Part shown: positions 5,092 through 14,521 of the stretch, in pieces
How the letters are laid out: each line of letters opens with the position of its first letter
Position numbering within the stretch: position 1 is the first letter of the stretch
DNA from: Candidatus Hermodarchaeota archaeon
Lineage (GTDB): Archaea > Asgardarchaeota > Lokiarchaeia > Sigyniarchaeales > SOKP01
NCBI GenBank assembly: GCA_048885525.1
Contig: JBHLLP010000064.1
Span: forward strand, 1-14,521
Direction of reading: 5' to 3'
DNA: 14,521 bases
The notes under the pieces: model-generated
Databases searched by the model: none
What the model was told of the DNA's origin: nothing
What the model saw: the letters and a program-made list of their open reading frames with translations, nothing else
Made by a program: the position numbers and the translations under genes

Positions 5092-6405
5092 TTAATGTGT
5101 CGTACATGAGACACAAGGATCAAAAGCTCTGATTATTCTCTGAATATTGTTTTTCACTAAATTAATATCTCCTGTTCTTTCAAAAAGTAATTTTGCATAA
5201 TTCGTAATCATTTCATTTATAAGAGGAATATTAAATTCGGTAGCAACAAATAATTTTGTTCGATCAATAAAATTATGATCATTTACGTAATAATGATGTA
5301 ATAATAAGCCTCTGGGAGCTTCAATAACACCAATCCCTTCAACTTTTTTTACAGAATTCAAAGCAGGGTTTTCTTGTTTAGTAATTAAATTAGGATCATC
5401 TAAAATTTGTAAACTCTGGAAAGATTCTAAATACATTTCTAATAATCTAAAAAAATTAGCAAATAAGATATTATTTTTCCATTGTTTATCAAAATATTCA
5501 AGATAATTTTGAGTCTCATCTGTACCATAATTCTCTGTAATATTGTACCGGGCAAAAGGACCTACAATCACATTTTTTTTATTATTAAAGTAAAAATCAA
5601 TTCCACGTAAATCAGGCTCCTTTCCAAAATAGGAAGAATAATTGTGCTTTTCAAAATCTATTAAATTTTTATTATCCTCTTTGAGTGATATTCTACCTGA
5701 ATATCGATTAGAATTTTTAAAATTCGAGAGCCCTAGATGAATGAGATTTGGAGTCTCAAATTCTTTAGGTGGTACTTGATGGGAAAATAATTCAATAAAT
5801 TTTTCGATAATCCATTCTAAATTGACTAATGCATTTTGAAATTTCTTTTTAGCTGTTGAAATATTTTTTTTGGAAGGATAAAAAATAATTCCTCCAGGAA
5901 TAATTGAAATTAAATGAACGGATCTACCTCCAAACAAATTATTAATTTCATTTCCAATTTTAATTAATTCATATATATTTGTAGTTAGTTGTGGGTCATA
6001 ATTGATTAAATCATAAGCATTTGCAGTTTTCTGACTAATATTAAAGATATTTAATAGATCTGGTAAAGCTTGGAAAAAGAAATTCATAGAATGGGATTTG
6101 ATTAATTCTCCAGTCATTAAAATACGTCTTAAGAGTTTTGCTTGTTCCGAAACCTTGATATTATATATATCCTCAACTGCTTTACAACTAGCGATTGTTT
6201 GAGAAGCATAACATAATCCACATATCCTAGAAACTATTTTTGGGATATCTAATAATGACTTTCCAATTAAAAAATGTTCAAAACCTCTATAAATTTTAAA
6301 TTCAAAATTAACTAAAGAAATTTCATCATTTTGGATTAAAATTTTTATATCGCCATGTCCTTCTATACGTTTACAAATATCAATCACTTTTAACACATTT
6401 CTCAC
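5092..6405 (-). CDS. mvhA: [NiFe] hydrogenase large subunit, group 3 (MvhA-like by context), with atypical sensor-like features
   Basis: RIEGHG, RGFE, L1 SRICGLCYASQ, EAPRG.L.H and L2 RAFDPCVSCTTH-stop. The GTG start overlaps the upstream TGA (GTGA, 6405-6402). Confidence 0.88.
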   Translation of the reverse strand: MRNVLKVIDICKRIEGHGDIKILIQNDEISLVNFEFKIYRGFEHFLIGKSLLDIPKIVSRICGLCYASQTIASCKAVEDIYNIKVSEQAKLLRRILMTGELIKSHSMNFFFQALPDLLNIFNISQKTANAYDLINYDPQLTTNIYELIKIGNEINNLFGGRSVHLISIIPGGIIFYPSKKNISTAKKKFQNALVNLEWIIEKFIELFSHQVPPKEFETPNLIHLGLSNFKNSNRYSGRISLKEDNKNLIDFEKHNYSSYFGKEPDLRGIDFYFNNKKNVIVGPFARYNITENYGTDETQNYLEYFDKQWKNNILFANFFRLLEMYLESFQSLQILDDPNLITKQENPALNSVKKVEGIGVIEAPRGLLLHHYYVNDHNFIDRTKLFVATEFNIPLINEMITNYAKLLFERTGDINLVKNNIQRIIRAFDPCVSCTTH

Positions 6406-7160
6406 CCTTCCAATTTTGGTTTAGAGAATCGATAAAAAATCCCAGTATAGTCTTTAAGTTCTTGAGATAAATTTATCAAACTTAAATAGTTAACAATATT
6501 AGAAGTAAAATCTTTTGATACAGGCCCTAGACATCCTTCACAGGGAAGACCCATTTTAATGCATTTATGTTCACACCCATCTCGAGTTATGGGTCCTAGA
6601 CATAATATGCCATTTTGTAAAAAACATTGAGAGGTTTCCTCATCAAGTTTAATCTCTTCTGGATTTGGAGCAATTTTTGTAATATTTATACTTGAATTTA
6701 TTTTCATATCTCCTCTTAATGGACAATTACCACACATATTCTTTTCAGAGAGCTCTATTTCCTTATTTTCAACCAATCTAATTAGACAATTTCCAAAAAG
6801 TTTCATAGGAGGTGGACAGCCAGGGATAATACCATCAATTTCAATATAATTTGAAATTGGCTCTGTAACTTTTACATCTGATAGACTCAATATTCCTCCA
6901 AAACTAGCACATGTTCCTAATGCATATATTTTTTTTGCTTGTTTTCGGAGTTTTCGAAGGATAGGTATTTGATTTTCTTCAGAAATGCATCCTTCCACTA
7001 AGCATATATCACAATCTTCAATGTCTTTTACATCAGAAATAAACTGAAAGTAAATAACTTTAGTTCTTTCAAGAAATTGCGGAAAAATATCTAACGAAAT
7101 AAGAGATGAGATGCATCCACTACAAGATGTTAGAGATACTATTACAAATCTACGTTTCAA
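6402..7160 (-). CDS. mvhG: [NiFe] hydrogenase small subunit (MvhG/VhuG-like), about 252 aa
   Basis: SLTSCSGC, LVEG, ALGTCASFGG, IPGCPP, CGNCP and CFLQNGILCLGPITRDGCEHKCIKMGLPCEGCLGP. Start reassigned to TTG 7160, which lies 5 nt after SD GAGGAGGT (7173-7166) and overlaps the upstream stop by 11 nt. Confidence 0.85.
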   Translation of the reverse strand: MKRRFVIVSLTSCSGCISSLISLDIFPQFLERTKVIYFQFISDVKDIEDCDICLVEGCISEENQIPILRKLRKQAKKIYALGTCASFGGILSLSDVKVTEPISNYIEIDGIIPGCPPPMKLFGNCLIRLVENKEIELSEKNMCGNCPLRGDMKINSSINITKIAPNPEEIKLDEETSQCFLQNGILCLGPITRDGCEHKCIKMGLPCEGCLGPVSKDFTSNIVNYLSLINLSQELKDYTGIFYRFSKPKLEG

Positions 7161-9699
7161 ATTTAACCTCCTCATATAATTTTGTATAAAATTTATTAAC
7201 TGCCTCAGCAAACTTAATGCCCTCAACAGCATTCATATGTTTAAGAATTATTCGTTCACGGTATTTCTCTGGTATGATATTTTTTAGTAACATTATTTTT
7301 TTTTCTACTTTTTCTACTCCATCAATATAACGACATGCGTTTTTTCTACAACCAATTACCATTATTCCATCGAAACCAAACTCAAAAGATTTAAGTATGA
7401 AACTTGTATCAATACGACCAGTACAGGGAACAGGTAAAATAAAAATGTTCGGATTATATGAAATCTTTTTATAACCAGCATCATCAGCAGCAGCATAACC
7501 ACAAGAGCGACAACAAAAGGCAATAATTTTAGGTCGTTTTCTGAACTTCGAAAAAATTTCAATTGATTTTAAAATCTTCCCAGAATTATCTATATTTAAA
7601 TCTATCGCATTAGTTGGGCATATACTAGCGCATGTACCACAACCCTTGCATTTAAATTTATCTATACTTACTTTTTCTGATTCTATTGTAATTGCGTTAT
7701 AAGGACATATTTTAGAACACAAACCACATAACCCACACTTGTTATCATCGATTTCAATTCCACTAAATTCCGCTATCAAATAATCATTGGAGAGAAGTGA
7801 AATTATCTTAATTGCAGTATTATTAACTGTTGAAATAGTAGAATTATAATCTAATGGTCCAAATATAGTTCCAACTCCATATATTCCAGATGCTAAGGTT
7901 TCTTCACTCATAAATCCGTAATCATCTAATGTAAAATCCATTGTTTTTCGAAATGATTTTAGATCTTCATTTGGTATTAATGTTTGGTTTAAAACAATTA
8001 AATCACTTGGATATTCTTTCGAGTCCACCTTTACTATCTTTTGATTGTTTTTTTCAATTATTTTTATTTTATTGCTATAATGCATTCTAGAATCCATGGA
8101 TCTAAGTAAAAAATCATCAGCTTTATTTATCTTACTTAAATCGTAAAAAATGTTTACTTTACAGCTAGGAATTTTTGCTTCAATATAATTTAAATATTTT
8201 AGTGCTAGGATATCTTGAAGTTTATGTTGGTGATCAGGAGGTCCTACATATTGTACAATTGAAATTGTCTTTGGAGGTGTTTTATCAGAAATTTTTAATA
8301 TTTTGCCTTCTGTAAATCCATCCGAGGATAACATTCTTTCAAATTCAGATGATGTAATTATATCATTTTGTGGGTTATAACAATAATCGTCTAAATCTGA
8401 GAAAAGGTCAGAACCTATAGCTATAACTTTTGTACCTACTTTAATTTCCATTGGCTCTGGTCTTTTTGTCAAATCTATGGCCTTATTCACGCAAGCACGT
8501 TCACAAATTCTGCAGTTAAGGCAATTATTGATATCTGATTCATCAATTAAAGGAACATAGGGAAAAGAATGAATAAATGGGATGTAAATAATTTTTCTAT
8601 TAATTAATCCAAATTCATATTGATTTGGTTTTTCAATACTACATACTTCTATGCATTGTTTGCAACTAGTACATTTCTTTATATCCACATATCGAGGTTT
8701 TTTAATCAAATTAAGAGTAAAATTTCCAACTTCACCTGAAACGCTTTCTATTTCAGTATTAGTAAGAACTTTTACATTTTTCTCATTAACTAACTCACCT
8801 ATTAATTCTGAAATCAAGCATATAGAACAATCACCCATATTATGAATTCGATCCCATCTGGCAACCTTACCTCCTAAAGTTGGCGATTTTTCAATAACAT
8901 ATACCTTTATACCAGCTCGAGCTAAATTTAATGCTAGTGTTATACTAGCAATTCCACCTCCTATAATTGCAGTACTCTTTTCAATTTCCACTCTCTTAAC
9001 TTTTACTTTTTCTTGAAGACTTATCCGTTCAATAGCTGCTTCAATTAGCAATTTTGCCTTTTCTAATGAAAGAACAGGGTCTATCTGATTTGTTTCGAAC
9101 TGATGTACCCAACAACATTGTTCTCTAATATTTGCTATTTCTATATTGAAATGGTCAATAACGCCATCAAAAATTCGTTTAAAAAGATGTTGATGAGTTC
9201 TAGGAGAACATGCTGCTATTACAATCTTATTTAAGAAATTATCTTTTACCCAATGAGTAATTTTATCAAAATTTTTTTGTTGACATAAATTTTCGAAGAT
9301 TTTTACAGAAACAACCATTCTTAACTTACTAATATATTTTTCAAGTGCCATTATATTAATTACATTTGAAATTTCTGTATTGCAGTTGCAAATTATCACT
9401 CCAATTCGGTTTATTTCACTTCCCTTGGAATCTAAATATTCCTCAATATTCTCTCCTGATAAAATTCTTTTGTTAAGGTTTAGAATCTTTAATACGCGTT
9501 TACCATCTTCAGTAAGAAAATATGATTTTTTGTCTTTATTTATCAGTGAACCAATTTTTTTAAGATGGAAATTTAGTTGCCCTGTTGTTTCTAGACCCAA
9601 TTTTTCCATTAAATCTGTATAGGGAATATAACCCTCTTTTTCTAAAAGAAGTAAGATTTTTCTTCTAAACGGGTGAGATAATATAGCATATAAATCCAT
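7150..9699 (-). CDS. Fusion protein: ArsR-like winged HTH (aa ~1-75) + degenerate HdrA (aa ~98-720) + MvhD [2Fe-2S] domain (aa ~722-849)
   Basis: wHTH: LSHPFRRKILLLL..YTDLMEKLGL.TTGQLNFHLKKI..YFLTEDG. HdrA: RIGVIICNC, AACSPRTH, ANIREQCCWVH, IIGGGIAS, GDCSIC and four CxxCxxCxxxC motifs. MvhD: IIAFCCRSCGYAAAD..VPCTGRID..DGIMVIGCRKNACRY. Confidence 0.9.
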   Translation of the reverse strand: MDLYAILSHPFRRKILLLLEKEGYIPYTDLMEKLGLETTGQLNFHLKKIGSLINKDKKSYFLTEDGKRVLKILNLNKRILSGENIEEYLDSKGSEINRIGVIICNCNTEISNVINIMALEKYISKLRMVVSVKIFENLCQQKNFDKITHWVKDNFLNKIVIAACSPRTHQHLFKRIFDGVIDHFNIEIANIREQCCWVHQFETNQIDPVLSLEKAKLLIEAAIERISLQEKVKVKRVEIEKSTAIIGGGIASITLALNLARAGIKVYVIEKSPTLGGKVARWDRIHNMGDCSICLISELIGELVNEKNVKVLTNTEIESVSGEVGNFTLNLIKKPRYVDIKKCTSCKQCIEVCSIEKPNQYEFGLINRKIIYIPFIHSFPYVPLIDESDINNCLNCRICERACVNKAIDLTKRPEPMEIKVGTKVIAIGSDLFSDLDDYCYNPQNDIITSSEFERMLSSDGFTEGKILKISDKTPPKTISIVQYVGPPDHQHKLQDILALKYLNYIEAKIPSCKVNIFYDLSKINKADDFLLRSMDSRMHYSNKIKIIEKNNQKIVKVDSKEYPSDLIVLNQTLIPNEDLKSFRKTMDFTLDDYGFMSEETLASGIYGVGTIFGPLDYNSTISTVNNTAIKIISLLSNDYLIAEFSGIEIDDNKCGLCGLCSKICPYNAITIESEKVSIDKFKCKGCGTCASICPTNAIDLNIDNSGKILKSIEIFSKFRKRPKIIAFCCRSCGYAAADDAGYKKISYNPNIFILPVPCTGRIDTSFILKSFEFGFDGIMVIGCRKNACRYIDGVEKVEKKIMLLKNIIPEKYRERIILKHMNAVEGIKFAEAVNKFYTKLYEEVKFET

Positions 9700-9821: not shown

Positions 9822-10955
9822 TCATGAAGGAGTTTTGTATGATTTCGATTTATTTAATAAAAATTGCTCCGTTCTTGCTATTTTTGATTGAGAGAACTGG
9901 TTAAGTGTTTCTTTCATTTGATTTTTAATTGTATTATCTATTTTTAAACTCTTAATTATCCCTGTTTTAATTGCTCTATCAATTATATCTTTTCCTTTTT
10001 TAGTTCGAGTGATTACTGTTGTAAATTTATCTGGGGAACCTAATCCTCCAAAAGAGATATCAGCATAAATATTAGTAAAATCTTTGCAAACTTCACAGGC
10101 GGGACGCATATAATCAGTTAATTCTTTAAAGTTTATATAAACCTCTTTTTGATCGGCTACATGGTTTTTTAACTCAATAATTAAATTCTCTTTAATATTT
10201 ATTCTCTTAATATCCTTGAATTTAATTTTAAATTGCTTCTCGAATTGTTTCATTTTTGTTCTATCAAAGAAGAAATTCTCATAGCAAAATAGTCCAAGAC
10301 AGATTTCTATGTTTTCGGATGGAATTATTCCTAGACTTTGCATACATCTAATTGTATAAATTTGGCAAGGAGTCCCAACAAGTGCTAATTTCTTAAATTT
10401 ATAATGCCGTAATTTAGGTAATGAACTAATATATGTATGGAATTTCTGTATCGTGTCTAATTGTGCTGACATGTCCAATTTTGTACCTGAGGCATTTATT
10501 AAATCATTTCTAGTTTTAGCGATAATAGCTTCTCTAGAGAAAGCTGATTTTGTTTTTGCAACAATTGCTCCTTCAATAATTTTTTTTTCTATTAAGTAAT
10601 TTATAATTGTGTTTACAACGCCTCCATCTGTTCCATATTTCAAAAATTCCTCATCAGTTGATTGACATGAATAAATATTATCTATATAACCTAGAGGCAT
10701 TAATGAAAAGTCTGAAAAATTGAAAGTTTTATTAAGATCTTCATCTAAAATATGTGTTTGTGGACAGATCAAATAACAGATACCGCACTCTAAACACTTT
10801 TTCTTGTTTATATATTCTGGCGGTGAATTAGGGTTTTTAAAACCAATCACTTCGTTTTCAATTGAATTACAAAAACTCACACAGCCACCACATTGTTGAC
10901 AAATGCCGAGTTCATGAACCTCTTTAATTAAATCTTGAAAATCTTTAATTTTCAT
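9822..10955 (-). CDS. Coenzyme F420 hydrogenase/dehydrogenase beta-subunit family protein (FrhB/FdhB-like) with N-terminal ferredoxin domain
   Basis: CQQCGGCVSFC, CLECGICYLICP, GTDGGVV, VGTPCQ, LGLFCYENF, CEVCKDFT.IYADISFGGLGS and RTKKG. SD-like GGTGA lies upstream. Confidence 0.9.
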   Translation of the reverse strand: MKIKDFQDLIKEVHELGICQQCGGCVSFCNSIENEVIGFKNPNSPPEYINKKKCLECGICYLICPQTHILDEDLNKTFNFSDFSLMPLGYIDNIYSCQSTDEEFLKYGTDGGVVNTIINYLIEKKIIEGAIVAKTKSAFSREAIIAKTRNDLINASGTKLDMSAQLDTIQKFHTYISSLPKLRHYKFKKLALVGTPCQIYTIRCMQSLGIIPSENIEICLGLFCYENFFFDRTKMKQFEKQFKIKFKDIKRINIKENLIIELKNHVADQKEVYINFKELTDYMRPACEVCKDFTNIYADISFGGLGSPDKFTTVITRTKKGKDIIDRAIKTGIIKSLKIDNTIKNQMKETLNQFSQSKIARTEQFLLNKSKSYKTPS

Positions 10956-11372: not shown

Positions 11373-11378
11373 AGGTGA
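11373..11378 (+). promoter_or_regulatory. Shine-Dalgarno AGGTGA for hdrA
   Basis: AGGTGA-ATAAA-ATG(11384). Confidence 0.7.
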
Positions 11379-11383
11379 ATAAA

Positions 11384-13420
11384 ATGTCTGAGATACAGAC
11401 CATAGTAAGAATAGGAGTTTATATTTGTAGATGAGGAGTTAATATTAGTGCTTCTATTGACTGTGATATCATCAGAGATTACGTTGAAGCTCTCCCAAAC
11501 GTTATTGTAGCAAGAGTAAATGATTTTACTTGTAGCGATCCAGGACAAAATATTATAAAAAATGATATTTTAGATTTAGACTTAAATCGAGTTGTTGTTG
11601 CAGCTTGTACACCTAAAATTCATGAATCCACCTATCGAGTAGTTTTAACTCAAGCAGGATTGAGCCCTTATTACTTCCAAATGGTTAATCTGCGTGAACA
11701 TTGCTCATTTACATACTCGGGAAATAAGAGAAAGACTACTGAAAAAGCGATAAGGTTAGTGCAAGCTGGGATAAATCGTGCTAGAGAATTAGAAATAATA
11801 CCTTATAAAAAAGTGTCAGTAGAAAAATCAGTATTGATTATCGGTGCGGGCATTGCAGGGATGAATGCTGCATTAGATTTAGCAAATCAAGGAATTAACG
11901 TCTATTTAGTCGAAAAAGAAGCCACAATTGGCGGGAAAATGGCACAATTAGATCGAATTTATCCTACAGACGATTGTGCTATATGAGTTTTAGCACCTAT
12001 AATGGTTAGCACTTCAAAACATCCAAATATAACATTATTTACTTATAGTGAAATCATTAAATTTAGTGGTATCCCTGGAAATTATAATGTTAAAATTCAC
12101 AAAAAAGCACGGTATATTAATGAAAAAAAATGCACTGGTTGTGGATTATGTACAACTGAATGCCCAATAAAAGTTCCTAACGAATTTGATAGAGGTATTG
12201 GCGAACGAAGTGCAATTTTCATACCTTTTCCCCAAGCAGTACCTAAAGTTGCGTTAATTGACAAGAGTGTATGCATAGGATGTAAAAATTGTCAAAGAAT
12301 TTGCCCTGCAGAAGCCATTGATTTTGAACAGACTTCAGAATATATAAATATAAAAGTTGGAGCGGTAATTATTGCAACGGGATGGGATGAATATCCAATT
12401 ATGGAAAATAACGATTATAAATATGGTATTTATCCTGATGTTATTACTCAAATAGAATTAGAACGTATGTTGAGTCCAGTAGGACCAACTGGAGGTCATG
12501 TATATAGAATTTCTGATGGGAATATCCCAAAAACAGTTGCAATGATTCAATGCGTAGGTTCAAGATCCTTAAATGGAAATCCCTATTGCTCAGGAGTATG
12601 ATGTAATGTTGCACTTAAAAACGCGCAATTGTTAAAACAAGAATATCCTGATATGGAAATTGTTATCTTTTATATAGATATGCGGACATGGGATAAAGGA
12701 AATGAAGAATATTATAGAAAAGCGAGAGAAGCAGGGATAATGATGATTCGGGGGAAGGTAGGAGATATTCGAGAAGATCCTAACCTTAAAAAAATAAAAG
12801 TTATAGCTTCTTCAACATTGACAAATGATTTCATTACCATGAATACCGATTTAGTTGTATTATCCACCGGTATGATTCCATCTAAAAAAACAACACAAAT
12901 TGTTGAAACTTTAGGTATTGCTAAAGATATCAATGGGTTTTTAACTGAAGTTCATGGATGCCTAAAACCTCAAGAAACAACTAATTTGGGTATTTATATT
13001 TGCGGTTGTGCTGCTGGACCTAAAAATATCCCTTATTCCGTCTCAACAGCGTTAGCTGCGGCAAGTAAGGTATCTACTTTACTTTCTAAAGATAAAATAA
13101 CTCAAGAGTTAATCATCGCTGAAATAAATGAAGATTTATGTATAGCTTGTCATAGATGTGAGAAACTCTGTAATTATAAGGCAATAAAAGTTAATGGAGA
13201 AAATATAGCTGAAGTAGACGATTTGAAATGTAAGGGCTGCGGAGTTTGTGTATCTTCATGCCCTGCTCGAGCAATTGATCTAAAATACTATAGAGATCAA
13301 CAAATTATTGAAGAGATAAAAGGGATTTGTAGCACTGAACTTGAATATAAGGAAGAATTTATTGAATCTATTGAACTTGTTTGGAAAAAAATAGAAGAAT
13401 TAACTCCTTATACTTCATAA
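11384..13420 (+). CDS. hdrA: Heterodisulfide reductase subunit A, 678 aa, predicted selenoprotein with three UGA-Sec codons (U17, U201, U406)
   Basis: A single frame from ATG 11384 to TAA 13418-13420 joins track ORFs 11660, 12002 and 12629 plus an unlisted N-terminus (MSEIQTIVRIGVYICR*GVNI). TGAs at 11432, 11984 and 12599 fall in CR*G, DDCAI*VLAP and YCSGV*CN, all Cys positions in HdrA. GAGIAG, QCVGSR, GPKNIP and four ferredoxin motifs are intact. Confidence 0.93.
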
Positions 13421-13491
13421 TCTGAAAAGGAATGATCCTCCTAAAAAAATGTTAGTTAAGAGGAGACTAACCCATTGTATGGGTTTTCAGA
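13421..13491 (+). promoter_or_regulatory. Eukaryote-like (Lokiarchaeota-type) SECIS element in the hdrA 3' UTR
   Basis: Outer helix TCTGAAAA(13421-28)/TTTTCAGA(13484-91). Core ATGA(13432-35) faces GA(13465-66). Upper helix TCCTC-C-TAA/TTA-A-GAGGA. The apical loop begins with unpaired As. Confidence 0.85.
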
Positions 13492-13528
13492 CAAATATAA
13501 AAAAGTAATTGATATTAATTTTTTATCA

Positions 13529-14521
13529 TCAGTAGCGATTAATTTGATTTTTGATCTTTAAGGAAATTAATTTATTATACCAATCTAATTTCTTATTCTT
13601 CCATTCAATAGTTCTGTCAGATGGAACAATAAGTTGCTCAATTATTCCTTTTGAAAGCATATTATTTATTACTTTCTCACCTTTATCTGTTCTAATTAAA
13701 ATCATGGAATATCCTTCTGGAGCTCCAGACGCCCCAACACTAATATCTGTAAATCTTCCTGTGAATTCATCACATTCATGGCAATTAATTCTTACTGCAG
13801 GATTAAGAGTTTTTATATTGATTTCGAATTCTTTATTATCTTTAGTTTGGATAAAAAAATTCTTTTTTATCCAAGTTTTTTTAATATTAGTAGGATCAAC
13901 ATTAGTCTCTTTTCTTAGAATATCATATAATTCGCTATAGATAAAATTCTCAAAACAGAAAAGACCTATAATATATTTAATTACATGCGCGGGTTTTACA
14001 AGTAAATATTTCATTTTACTTACAGCCTTACATTGACAAGGAGTTCCAATAAATGCAATTCTTAGCTGATCGATATCAAATATTTCCTTTTTCATAAGAA
14101 TCTCTTGTGGTATAGTATATAAATTTTTTAAAGGAAATATTTGAGGAGAAATTGAATAACGAGTACCTGCTGATTTAAAAAGATCTTCTTTATCAAATAT
14201 GATTTTTGGAACAGGTTCAAAATTATCGTTAAATTCTGAAACAATAGCTGCATCAATTTTATGTTTTTCAAATAAATATGTTAGAATTGCTGAGACCACT
14301 CCTCCATCTTGTCCAATTTTTTCTAATGTTGAGATTGTTGTTTTAGCAGCAAGAATTTTAATAATATATCCAATATTATCTTCAATACAATAATTATCAT
14401 TCAACTCTTTTAATAATACTTTAGTTTGGGGACAAATATAATAACAAACACCACATTTAGTACAATTCTCAACAGTTTTTTCTGATTTAAACTCCGGAAT
14501 GTATCCTTTCATTTCAATAAC
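13529..14521 (-). CDS. Second FrhB/FdhB-like F420-binding beta-subunit protein, 5'-truncated by the window edge
   Basis: CTKCGVCYYICP, GQDGGVV, SAGTRY, IGTPCQ, IGLFCFENF, CHECDEFT...DISVG and RTDKG. The frame is open beyond ATG 14512 to the edge (..VIE-MKG), and the paralog's first ferredoxin motif is missing, so the true start lies outside. Confidence 0.88.
   Translation of the reverse strand, partial: VIEMKGYIPEFKSEKTVENCTKCGVCYYICPQTKVLLKELNDNYCIEDNIGYIIKILAAKTTISTLEKIGQDGGVVSAILTYLFEKHKIDAAIVSEFNDNFEPVPKIIFDKEDLFKSAGTRYSISPQIFPLKNLYTIPQEILMKKEIFDIDQLRIAFIGTPCQCKAVSKMKYLLVKPAHVIKYIIGLFCFENFIYSELYDILRKETNVDPTNIKKTWIKKNFFIQTKDNKEFEINIKTLNPAVRINCHECDEFTGRFTDISVGASGAPEGYSMILIRTDKGEKVINNMLSKGIIEQLIVPSDRTIEWKNKKLDWYNKLISLKIKNQINRY

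Follow-up and report, generated by a model that had tools for sequence, protein, structure and literature searches.

The window, by which we mean the whole 14.5-kb stretch of DNA analysed here, belongs to a Loki-type Asgard (Promethearchaeota) genome of 3.58 Mb in 87 contigs that is 99% complete. Its forward strand holds a frame for the heterodisulfide reductase-type protein HdrA, which translation table 11 breaks into pieces of 108, 199 and 263 amino acids; read with TGA as U, the same interval gives one frame that is otherwise uninterrupted across 678 codons, with in-frame TGAs at codons 17, 201 and 406 (nucleotides 11432, 11984 and 12599). The pattern at 11384-13420 is far beyond chance expectation in this AT-rich window. 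The locus is organised as follows.

7150-9699, reverse strand: all-Cys paralog fusing a helix-turn-helix (HTH) region, an HdrA-like protein and MvhD, devoid of the four Cys of the 390/402/406/407 motif
9822-10955, reverse strand: FrhB/FdhB-like gene (PF04432/PF04422), divergent from hdrA, a conserved neighbour that is syntenic in orthologous loci
11374-11378, forward strand: putative Shine-Dalgarno-like GGTGA, 5 nt 5' of the ATG, as read from the sequence
11384-13420, forward strand: hdrA coding sequence, 678 codons plus a TAA stop, with TGA read as U
11432-11434, forward strand: UGA codon 17 of the N-terminal cluster domain, motif CRUG, aligned with Cys13 of 5odc_A
11984-11986, forward strand: UGA codon 201, motif DCAIU, aligned with Cys197 of 5odc_A, at the canonical Sec site of HdrA
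12599-12601, forward strand: UGA codon 406, motif YCSGVUC, equivalent to Cys403 of 5odc_A
13422-13490, forward strand: predicted Loki-type SECIS, from an alignment of 32 orthologs
13529-14512, reverse strand: second FrhB/FdhB-like gene (by Pfam), convergent with hdrA, where the published arrangement has VhuD

The hdrA product is predicted to comprise an N-terminal Cys-rich domain, a domain of FAD/thioredoxin-reductase fold and two 2x[4Fe-4S] ferredoxin domains, one inserted and one C-terminal; Pfam places FAD/Rossmann families at residues 149-216 and Fer4 families at 236-314 and 579-635. Searches against PDB sequences returned unbroken alignments to 9sfi_A (residues 9-651, E = 7e-211), in which the canonical Sec position is written X for a non-standard residue, and to 5odc_A (residues 9-648, E = 6e-206). 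Every HdrA Cys column is kept in the window protein, with Sec at 17, 201 and 406, and codon 406 corresponds to the leading Cys of the CC pair that closes a C-x11-C-x3-CC motif of the thioredoxin-reductase domain (residue numbers of 5odc_A were counted off the printed alignment). A first, sequence-only reading had described a single hdrA split by gene callers, with three in-frame TGAs at conserved Cys sites (CRUG, DCAIU and YCSGVUC) and nothing else disrupting the frame; the 678-codon translation with TGA as U, the full-length match to HdrA structures and the alignment with Cys13, Cys197 and Cys403 of 5odc_A bear out each of these points. The best NCBIfam match was HdrA2 at 817.6 bits, under its cut-off of 1100 and short of the equivalog threshold, and other NCBIfam HdrA models scored 593-603 bits against cut-offs of 1300-1400, which were likewise not reached; the models, 762-777 positions in length, derive from proteins of methanogens. 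Judged by these matches, membership holds at the level of the HdrA family, and exact equivalog status does not.

The alternation of TGA and Cys that the sequence-only reading had expected among orthologs was seen across relatives. Among the 80 closest homologs (70-92% identity), TGA occupies codon 17 in 80 of 80 and codon 201 in 80 of 80; in a broader collection, the 55-gene set of HdrA from the phylum, 53 genes have TGA at codon 17, with Sec at both codons in 53 and Cys at both in 2. From these comparisons, the predicted Sec17 and Sec201 are fixed features of the window's HdrA lineage. Codon 406 is TGA in 2 of the 80 (the window and locus L112) and TGT or TGC in 78, and codon 407 is TGA in 3. 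Further Sec positions in the 55-gene set lie at residues 50 (7 genes), 75 (13), 300 (1), 303 (7) and 622 (1), and among the 150 matches listed from a search of 301 genomes HdrA occurs with one to five TGAs, most having at least two. Nine of the 11 columns with sporadic TGAs are invariant Cys (binomial P ~2e-4) where 26% would be expected, this being the share of Cys codons among the one-step neighbours of TGA in hdrA; such clustering fits Cys-to-Sec exchange and does not fit random nonsense mutation. The two sporadic TGAs outside Cys columns, at Leu164 in locus L059 and at the variable column 112 in one of the 80 loci, may be errors or true nonsense alleles. One relative (L112 / L051; MAG DZ1B.199, JBHLJY010000012.1) has an HdrA with five in-frame TGAs, two of them adjacent at the CC doublet (V-U-U-C) and one in the C-terminal ferredoxin CxxCxxC; a simple motif scan of the 700 nt downstream of this gene found no SECIS.

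Downstream of the window hdrA, a candidate Loki-type SECIS starts 11 nt past the UAA stop and is built from the following parts.

13422-13428 with 13484-13490, forward strand: lower helix
13432-13435, forward strand: AUGA
13436-13444 with 13456-13464, forward strand: 9-bp helix with one C.A mismatch
13445-13455, forward strand: 11-nt loop, AAAAAUGUUAG
13465-13466, forward strand: GA
13471-13483, forward strand: extra small hairpin held inside the lower helix

In the alignment of the 32 orthologous 3' regions (alignment A1), 93.8% of the cells are paired and 9 of the 21 SECIS pairs have changed on both sides; the covariation score was reached by 0 of 500 shuffles, and slid registers were 30-60% paired. 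No second such motif occurs on either strand of the 14.5-kb window. The published lokiSECIS, in the part of PMC4989117 that deals with it, has a 9-bp stem, an 11-nt apical loop with an A run and an AUGA..GA core, and the element at 13432-13466 fits these features (AUGA...GA core, 9-bp helix and 11-nt loop beginning with A's). The SECIS call rests on covariation and not on a single-sequence fold: the 9-bp helix has a C.A mismatch here where the orthologs have U-A, and, maybe because of that mismatch, it is missing from the minimum free energy fold of 13418-13500 (z -1.72), in which the lower helix and the extra hairpin do form. An Rfam scan of 13300-13650 with E values allowed as high as 10 returned nothing but noise, without any SECIS family, which is no evidence against the element since the Rfam models do not cover the Loki type. 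The extra 5-bp hairpin (13471-13483), which follows the GA of the core and precedes the 3' arm of the lower helix, is conserved in the orthogroup; 3 of its 5 pairs have changed on both sides, and it goes unmentioned in the lokiSECIS part of PMC4989117.

The third site differs from the other two in its history. The nearest orthologs (91-92% identical) have TGT at codon 406, a single-base difference from the TGA of the window with 27 identical flanking bases, which argues that TGA at this codon is derived and recent. It is found in 1 of the 32 direct orthologs. An alternative interpretation keeps Sec at codons 17 and 201 but puts the TGA at 406 down to faulty sequencing or assembly, or to a nonsense allele carried by part of the population, in which the protein would end at residue 405. 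That the TGA is unique among the direct orthologs, one base away from TGT and set in identical flanks speaks for this interpretation, as do the prevalence of Cys at 406 in 78 of 80 relatives, the MAG origin of the contig and two degenerate-pattern scans of metagenome contigs that returned no further copies of TGA at codon 406. We nevertheless consider it rather unlikely, because a fragment covering residues 207-405, with an identical sequence of 199 amino acids, was found among 5.8 billion predicted proteins on three contigs, the longest of which (16.9 kb) exceeds the 14.5 kb of the window contig. Three other 199-residue fragments in that collection (78-85% identical) also stop at 406, and in seven fragments of 200 residues the stop falls at 407. 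Longer members with the CC doublet occur in two of these 90%-identity clusters as well, so that, together with the fragments stopping there, the 406/407 doublet has switched between Cys and Sec several times among close relatives. TGA at 406 or 407 recurs in at least 10 other protein clusters and at loci L085, L086 and L112, in every case with an intact frame downstream. The gathering of sporadic HdrA TGAs on Cys codons and the functional-looking SECIS also speak against an error or a truncating allele. We therefore favour Sec at 406 as well, as a single-base derived state and not as a conserved feature on the sequence comparisons made here.

The genome also holds a set of genes for making and inserting selenocysteine, all the components that the sequence-only reading had named being found. 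A tRNA-Sec scores 63.6 bits, over the Rfam cut-off, with anticodon tca assigned by ARAGORN, and is adjoined by SepSecS (385 bits). Two selD genes stand side by side (G000:C16:19043-21411), one of them with an in-frame TGA of its own. A PSTK-like kinase (155 bits) has PSTK as its best family by far, and an EFSec-like GTPase ~5.4 kb from the tRNA-Sec scores 228 bits against selB and 127 bits against EF-Tu; both scores lie under cut-offs built on other lineages. Within the window, TGA acts as an ordinary stop at the expected length in three other genes, so it is not reassigned genome-wide.

These observations bear on two further interpretations, both of which we reject. A decayed pseudogene, or three small genes of 108, 199 and 263 amino acids as called under table 11, is very improbable: gene callers do split 11384-13420 in three, and public collections list the hdrA fragments as individual proteins, but the 678 codons contain no frameshift or other stop, two of the TGAs are kept at Cys columns in 80 of 80 relatives, the fragment borders would cut through the FAD domain and the cluster motifs, and there is a conserved SECIS along with the Sec machinery. 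A genome-wide reassignment of TGA to a standard amino acid such as Trp or Gly, with no selenium involved, has the open frame itself in its favour and nothing more, and can be dismissed given the three neighbouring genes that end in TGA at their expected length, the alignment of the in-frame TGAs with Cys and not with Trp or Gly, and the dedicated tRNA-Sec with the genes for its synthesis. Our interpretation, which we hold with good confidence on the sequence evidence, is that 11384-13420 is a single intact hdrA whose three UGAs are read as selenocysteine.

The surroundings of the gene are conserved in the order HdrA-MvhD fusion (reverse strand), FrhB-like gene (reverse), hdrA (forward) and FrhB-like gene (reverse). 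The fusion paralog is adjacent to Sec-HdrA in most orthologous loci, and the second FrhB/FdhB-like gene is kept at 68-90% identity in most of them. As the sequence-only reading had stated, the paralog has Cys at the first two sites (CNC and DCSIC). It encodes 849 amino acids that begin with a winged-helix/DUF7347 region, continue into an HdrA-like core and close with an MvhD (FlpD) domain. While the N-terminal and DCxxC Cys are kept, all four motif Cys (equivalent to 390, 402, 406 and 407) are gone from its thioredoxin-reductase domain, and because of this loss the fusion protein is probably unable to pass electrons to an HdrC-type partner. Genes for the small and large subunits of an Mvh-type [NiFe] hydrogenase lie at 5092-7232 on the reverse strand; the large subunit ends in DPCVSC and is of the Cys type, not the Sec type, despite the use of Sec elsewhere in the genome. 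No gene for an HdrB-type CCG-domain protein occurs on the hdrA contig, though many occur elsewhere in the genome, one of them beside an all-Cys HdrA on contig C48. The FrhB-like neighbours would be the obvious candidate partners of the window HdrA. Three other Sec-HdrA paralogs of the genome (on contigs C24, C5 and C6) resemble the window copy in having Sec at 17 and 201, the C6 paralog having an additional Sec at 50, and none of them has Sec406. Downstream of each stands a two-Sec VhuD gene, as in the arrangement published in 2016, whereas the window copy has no VhuD, and in the C24 and C5 paralogs a SECIS motif lies 451 and 492 nt past the hdrA stop, downstream of VhuD; a motif scan downstream of the C6 paralog found no SECIS.

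Comparison with published systems places most of these features within known diversity. Multi-Sec HdrA was reported from Lokiarchaeota in 2016 by Mariotti et al. (PMC4989117), whose sections on HdrA describe up to four Sec at five positions, a tandem of hdrA and vhuD with one shared SECIS after vhuD, and the general statement that HdrA always borrows the VhuD SECIS. The window HdrA is like these proteins in family and phylum and in having Sec near residue 200 and at additional conserved Cys positions, and the SECIS elements are alike in their AUGA...GA/AA core, 9-bp helix and 11-nt loop starting with AAAAA. Unlike the hdrA-vhuD tandem, the window gene has no vhuD downstream, has its own SECIS 11 nt past the stop and has the extra 3' hairpin. 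A 2024 survey of the Asgard selenoproteome (PMC11227280) collected 1439 selenoprotein sequences; its HdrA file (supplementary file 77) has Sec, written X, ~376 times at CxU and ~407 times at the canonical site, and it includes clear orthologs of the window gene with Sec at CxU and DCxxU. The sequence-only reading had taken Sec at the N-terminal CxU to go beyond the known case, a claim not supported in view of the Lokiarchaeota proteins and the ~376 CxU entries. Its broader suggestion that three Sec at predicted ligand positions exceed the classic case is for the most part not supported either: codons 17 and 201 are already catalogued, while Sec at 406 was not found in the 2024 catalogue, where V-X-C occurs 0 times and CSGVC 84 times in the HdrA sequence file (a count that overlooks any motif broken by a line end). 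Thus two sites are catalogued, 406 appears uncatalogued, and the stand-alone SECIS qualifies a published generalisation.

Methanogen HdrAs are more distant relatives. Those of 9sfi and of the Cys-type 5odc from Methanothermococcus thermolithotrophicus are ~50% identical to the window protein over the full length in the printed alignments that were inspected, and have every one of its domains and Cys motifs, with Cys where the window protein has residues 17 and 406. Methanococcales HdrA with a single Sec197 (9sfi; PMC13518236) has this residue at DCxxU, as the window HdrA does. The methanogen genes stand in hdrA-vhuD or HdrABC-Vhu contexts with a classical archaeal SECIS, whereas the window HdrA belongs to a non-methanogenic Asgard host and is flanked by FrhB-like genes.

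According to the mechanism that we propose, the hdrA mRNA would be translated through its three UGAs as selenocysteine, recoding being directed by the eukaryote-like lokiSECIS 11 nt past the UAA and drawing on the tRNA-Sec, PSTK-like kinase, SepSecS, SelD and EFSec-like factor encoded in the genome. Sec406 would be of recent origin, the leading Cys codon of the CC doublet having gone from TGT to TGA. A SECIS in the 3' untranslated region can serve any in-frame UGA of its message, and because of this a Cys-to-Sec change would be a single-base, near-neutral step, which would account for the sporadic occurrence of Sec at many HdrA Cys codons in the phylum.

The structural roles of the three residues are less certain. 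For the canonical site, the passage on this cluster in PMC9012536, a secondary citation, reports from the crystal structure that one HdrA protomer supplies Cys197 as a ligand to the N-terminal [4Fe-4S] cluster of its partner protomer. More recent cryo-EM work differs, describing this CxxC/U pair as binding a density of unidentified nature that lies between FAD and the [2Fe-2S] cluster of MvhD (PMC13580544) and as possibly forming a selenylsulfide (PMC13518236). Residue 17 is one of four invariant Cys positions of the N-terminal cluster domain. The thioredoxin-reductase domain, which holds a cluster passing electrons toward HdrBC, has no invariant Cys besides residues 390, 402, 406 and 407. We infer that the C-x11-C-x3-CC motif is the site of cluster HA4, and it is reasonable to regard residues 17 and 406 as probable cluster ligands; nothing usable was found in the literature on residue-level ligand assignments for HA3 and HA4. 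The sequence-only reading had placed all three Sec at predicted Fe-S ligand positions, which for residue 201 agrees with the crystallographic but not the cryo-EM description and for residues 17 and 406 is suggested by the invariant Cys pattern.

A bolder interpretation is that selenium replaces sulfur as a direct, tunable ligand of HdrA Fe-S clusters, with Sec17 and Sec201 coupled and Sec406 extending the principle to HA4. We regard this as doubtful. If it were true, Sec17 and Sec201, which are always found together in the Asgard sequences tabulated here, would be coupled at HA3, the mobile 'shuttle' cluster of the N-terminus, and could swap as ligands or form an Se-Se or Se-S bond as the arm swings. 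With Sec406, seleno-ligation would reach HA4 as well, which receives the high-potential electron of the bifurcating flavin, and Cys/Sec toggling at 406/407 would be a natural tuning of potential in a bifurcating enzyme and not neutral drift.

The most immediate consequence is for annotation: the window gene, along with hundreds of similar ones, still stands in databases in two to four pieces, and such annotation hides a full-length bifurcating flavoprotein in metabolic reconstructions of Asgard archaea. The locus adds a putative Sec position, at the CC doublet of the thioredoxin-reductase-domain motif, to those of the 2024 catalogue, and it provides one HdrA orthogroup with its own predicted SECIS right after hdrA and without VhuD, which qualifies the 2016 statement. 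The known picture of Asgard selenoproteins is unchanged by these results, and their biological value is modest but real: they suggest that Cys and Sec interchange freely at the Cys codons of cluster motifs once a SECIS in the 3' untranslated region serves the whole message.
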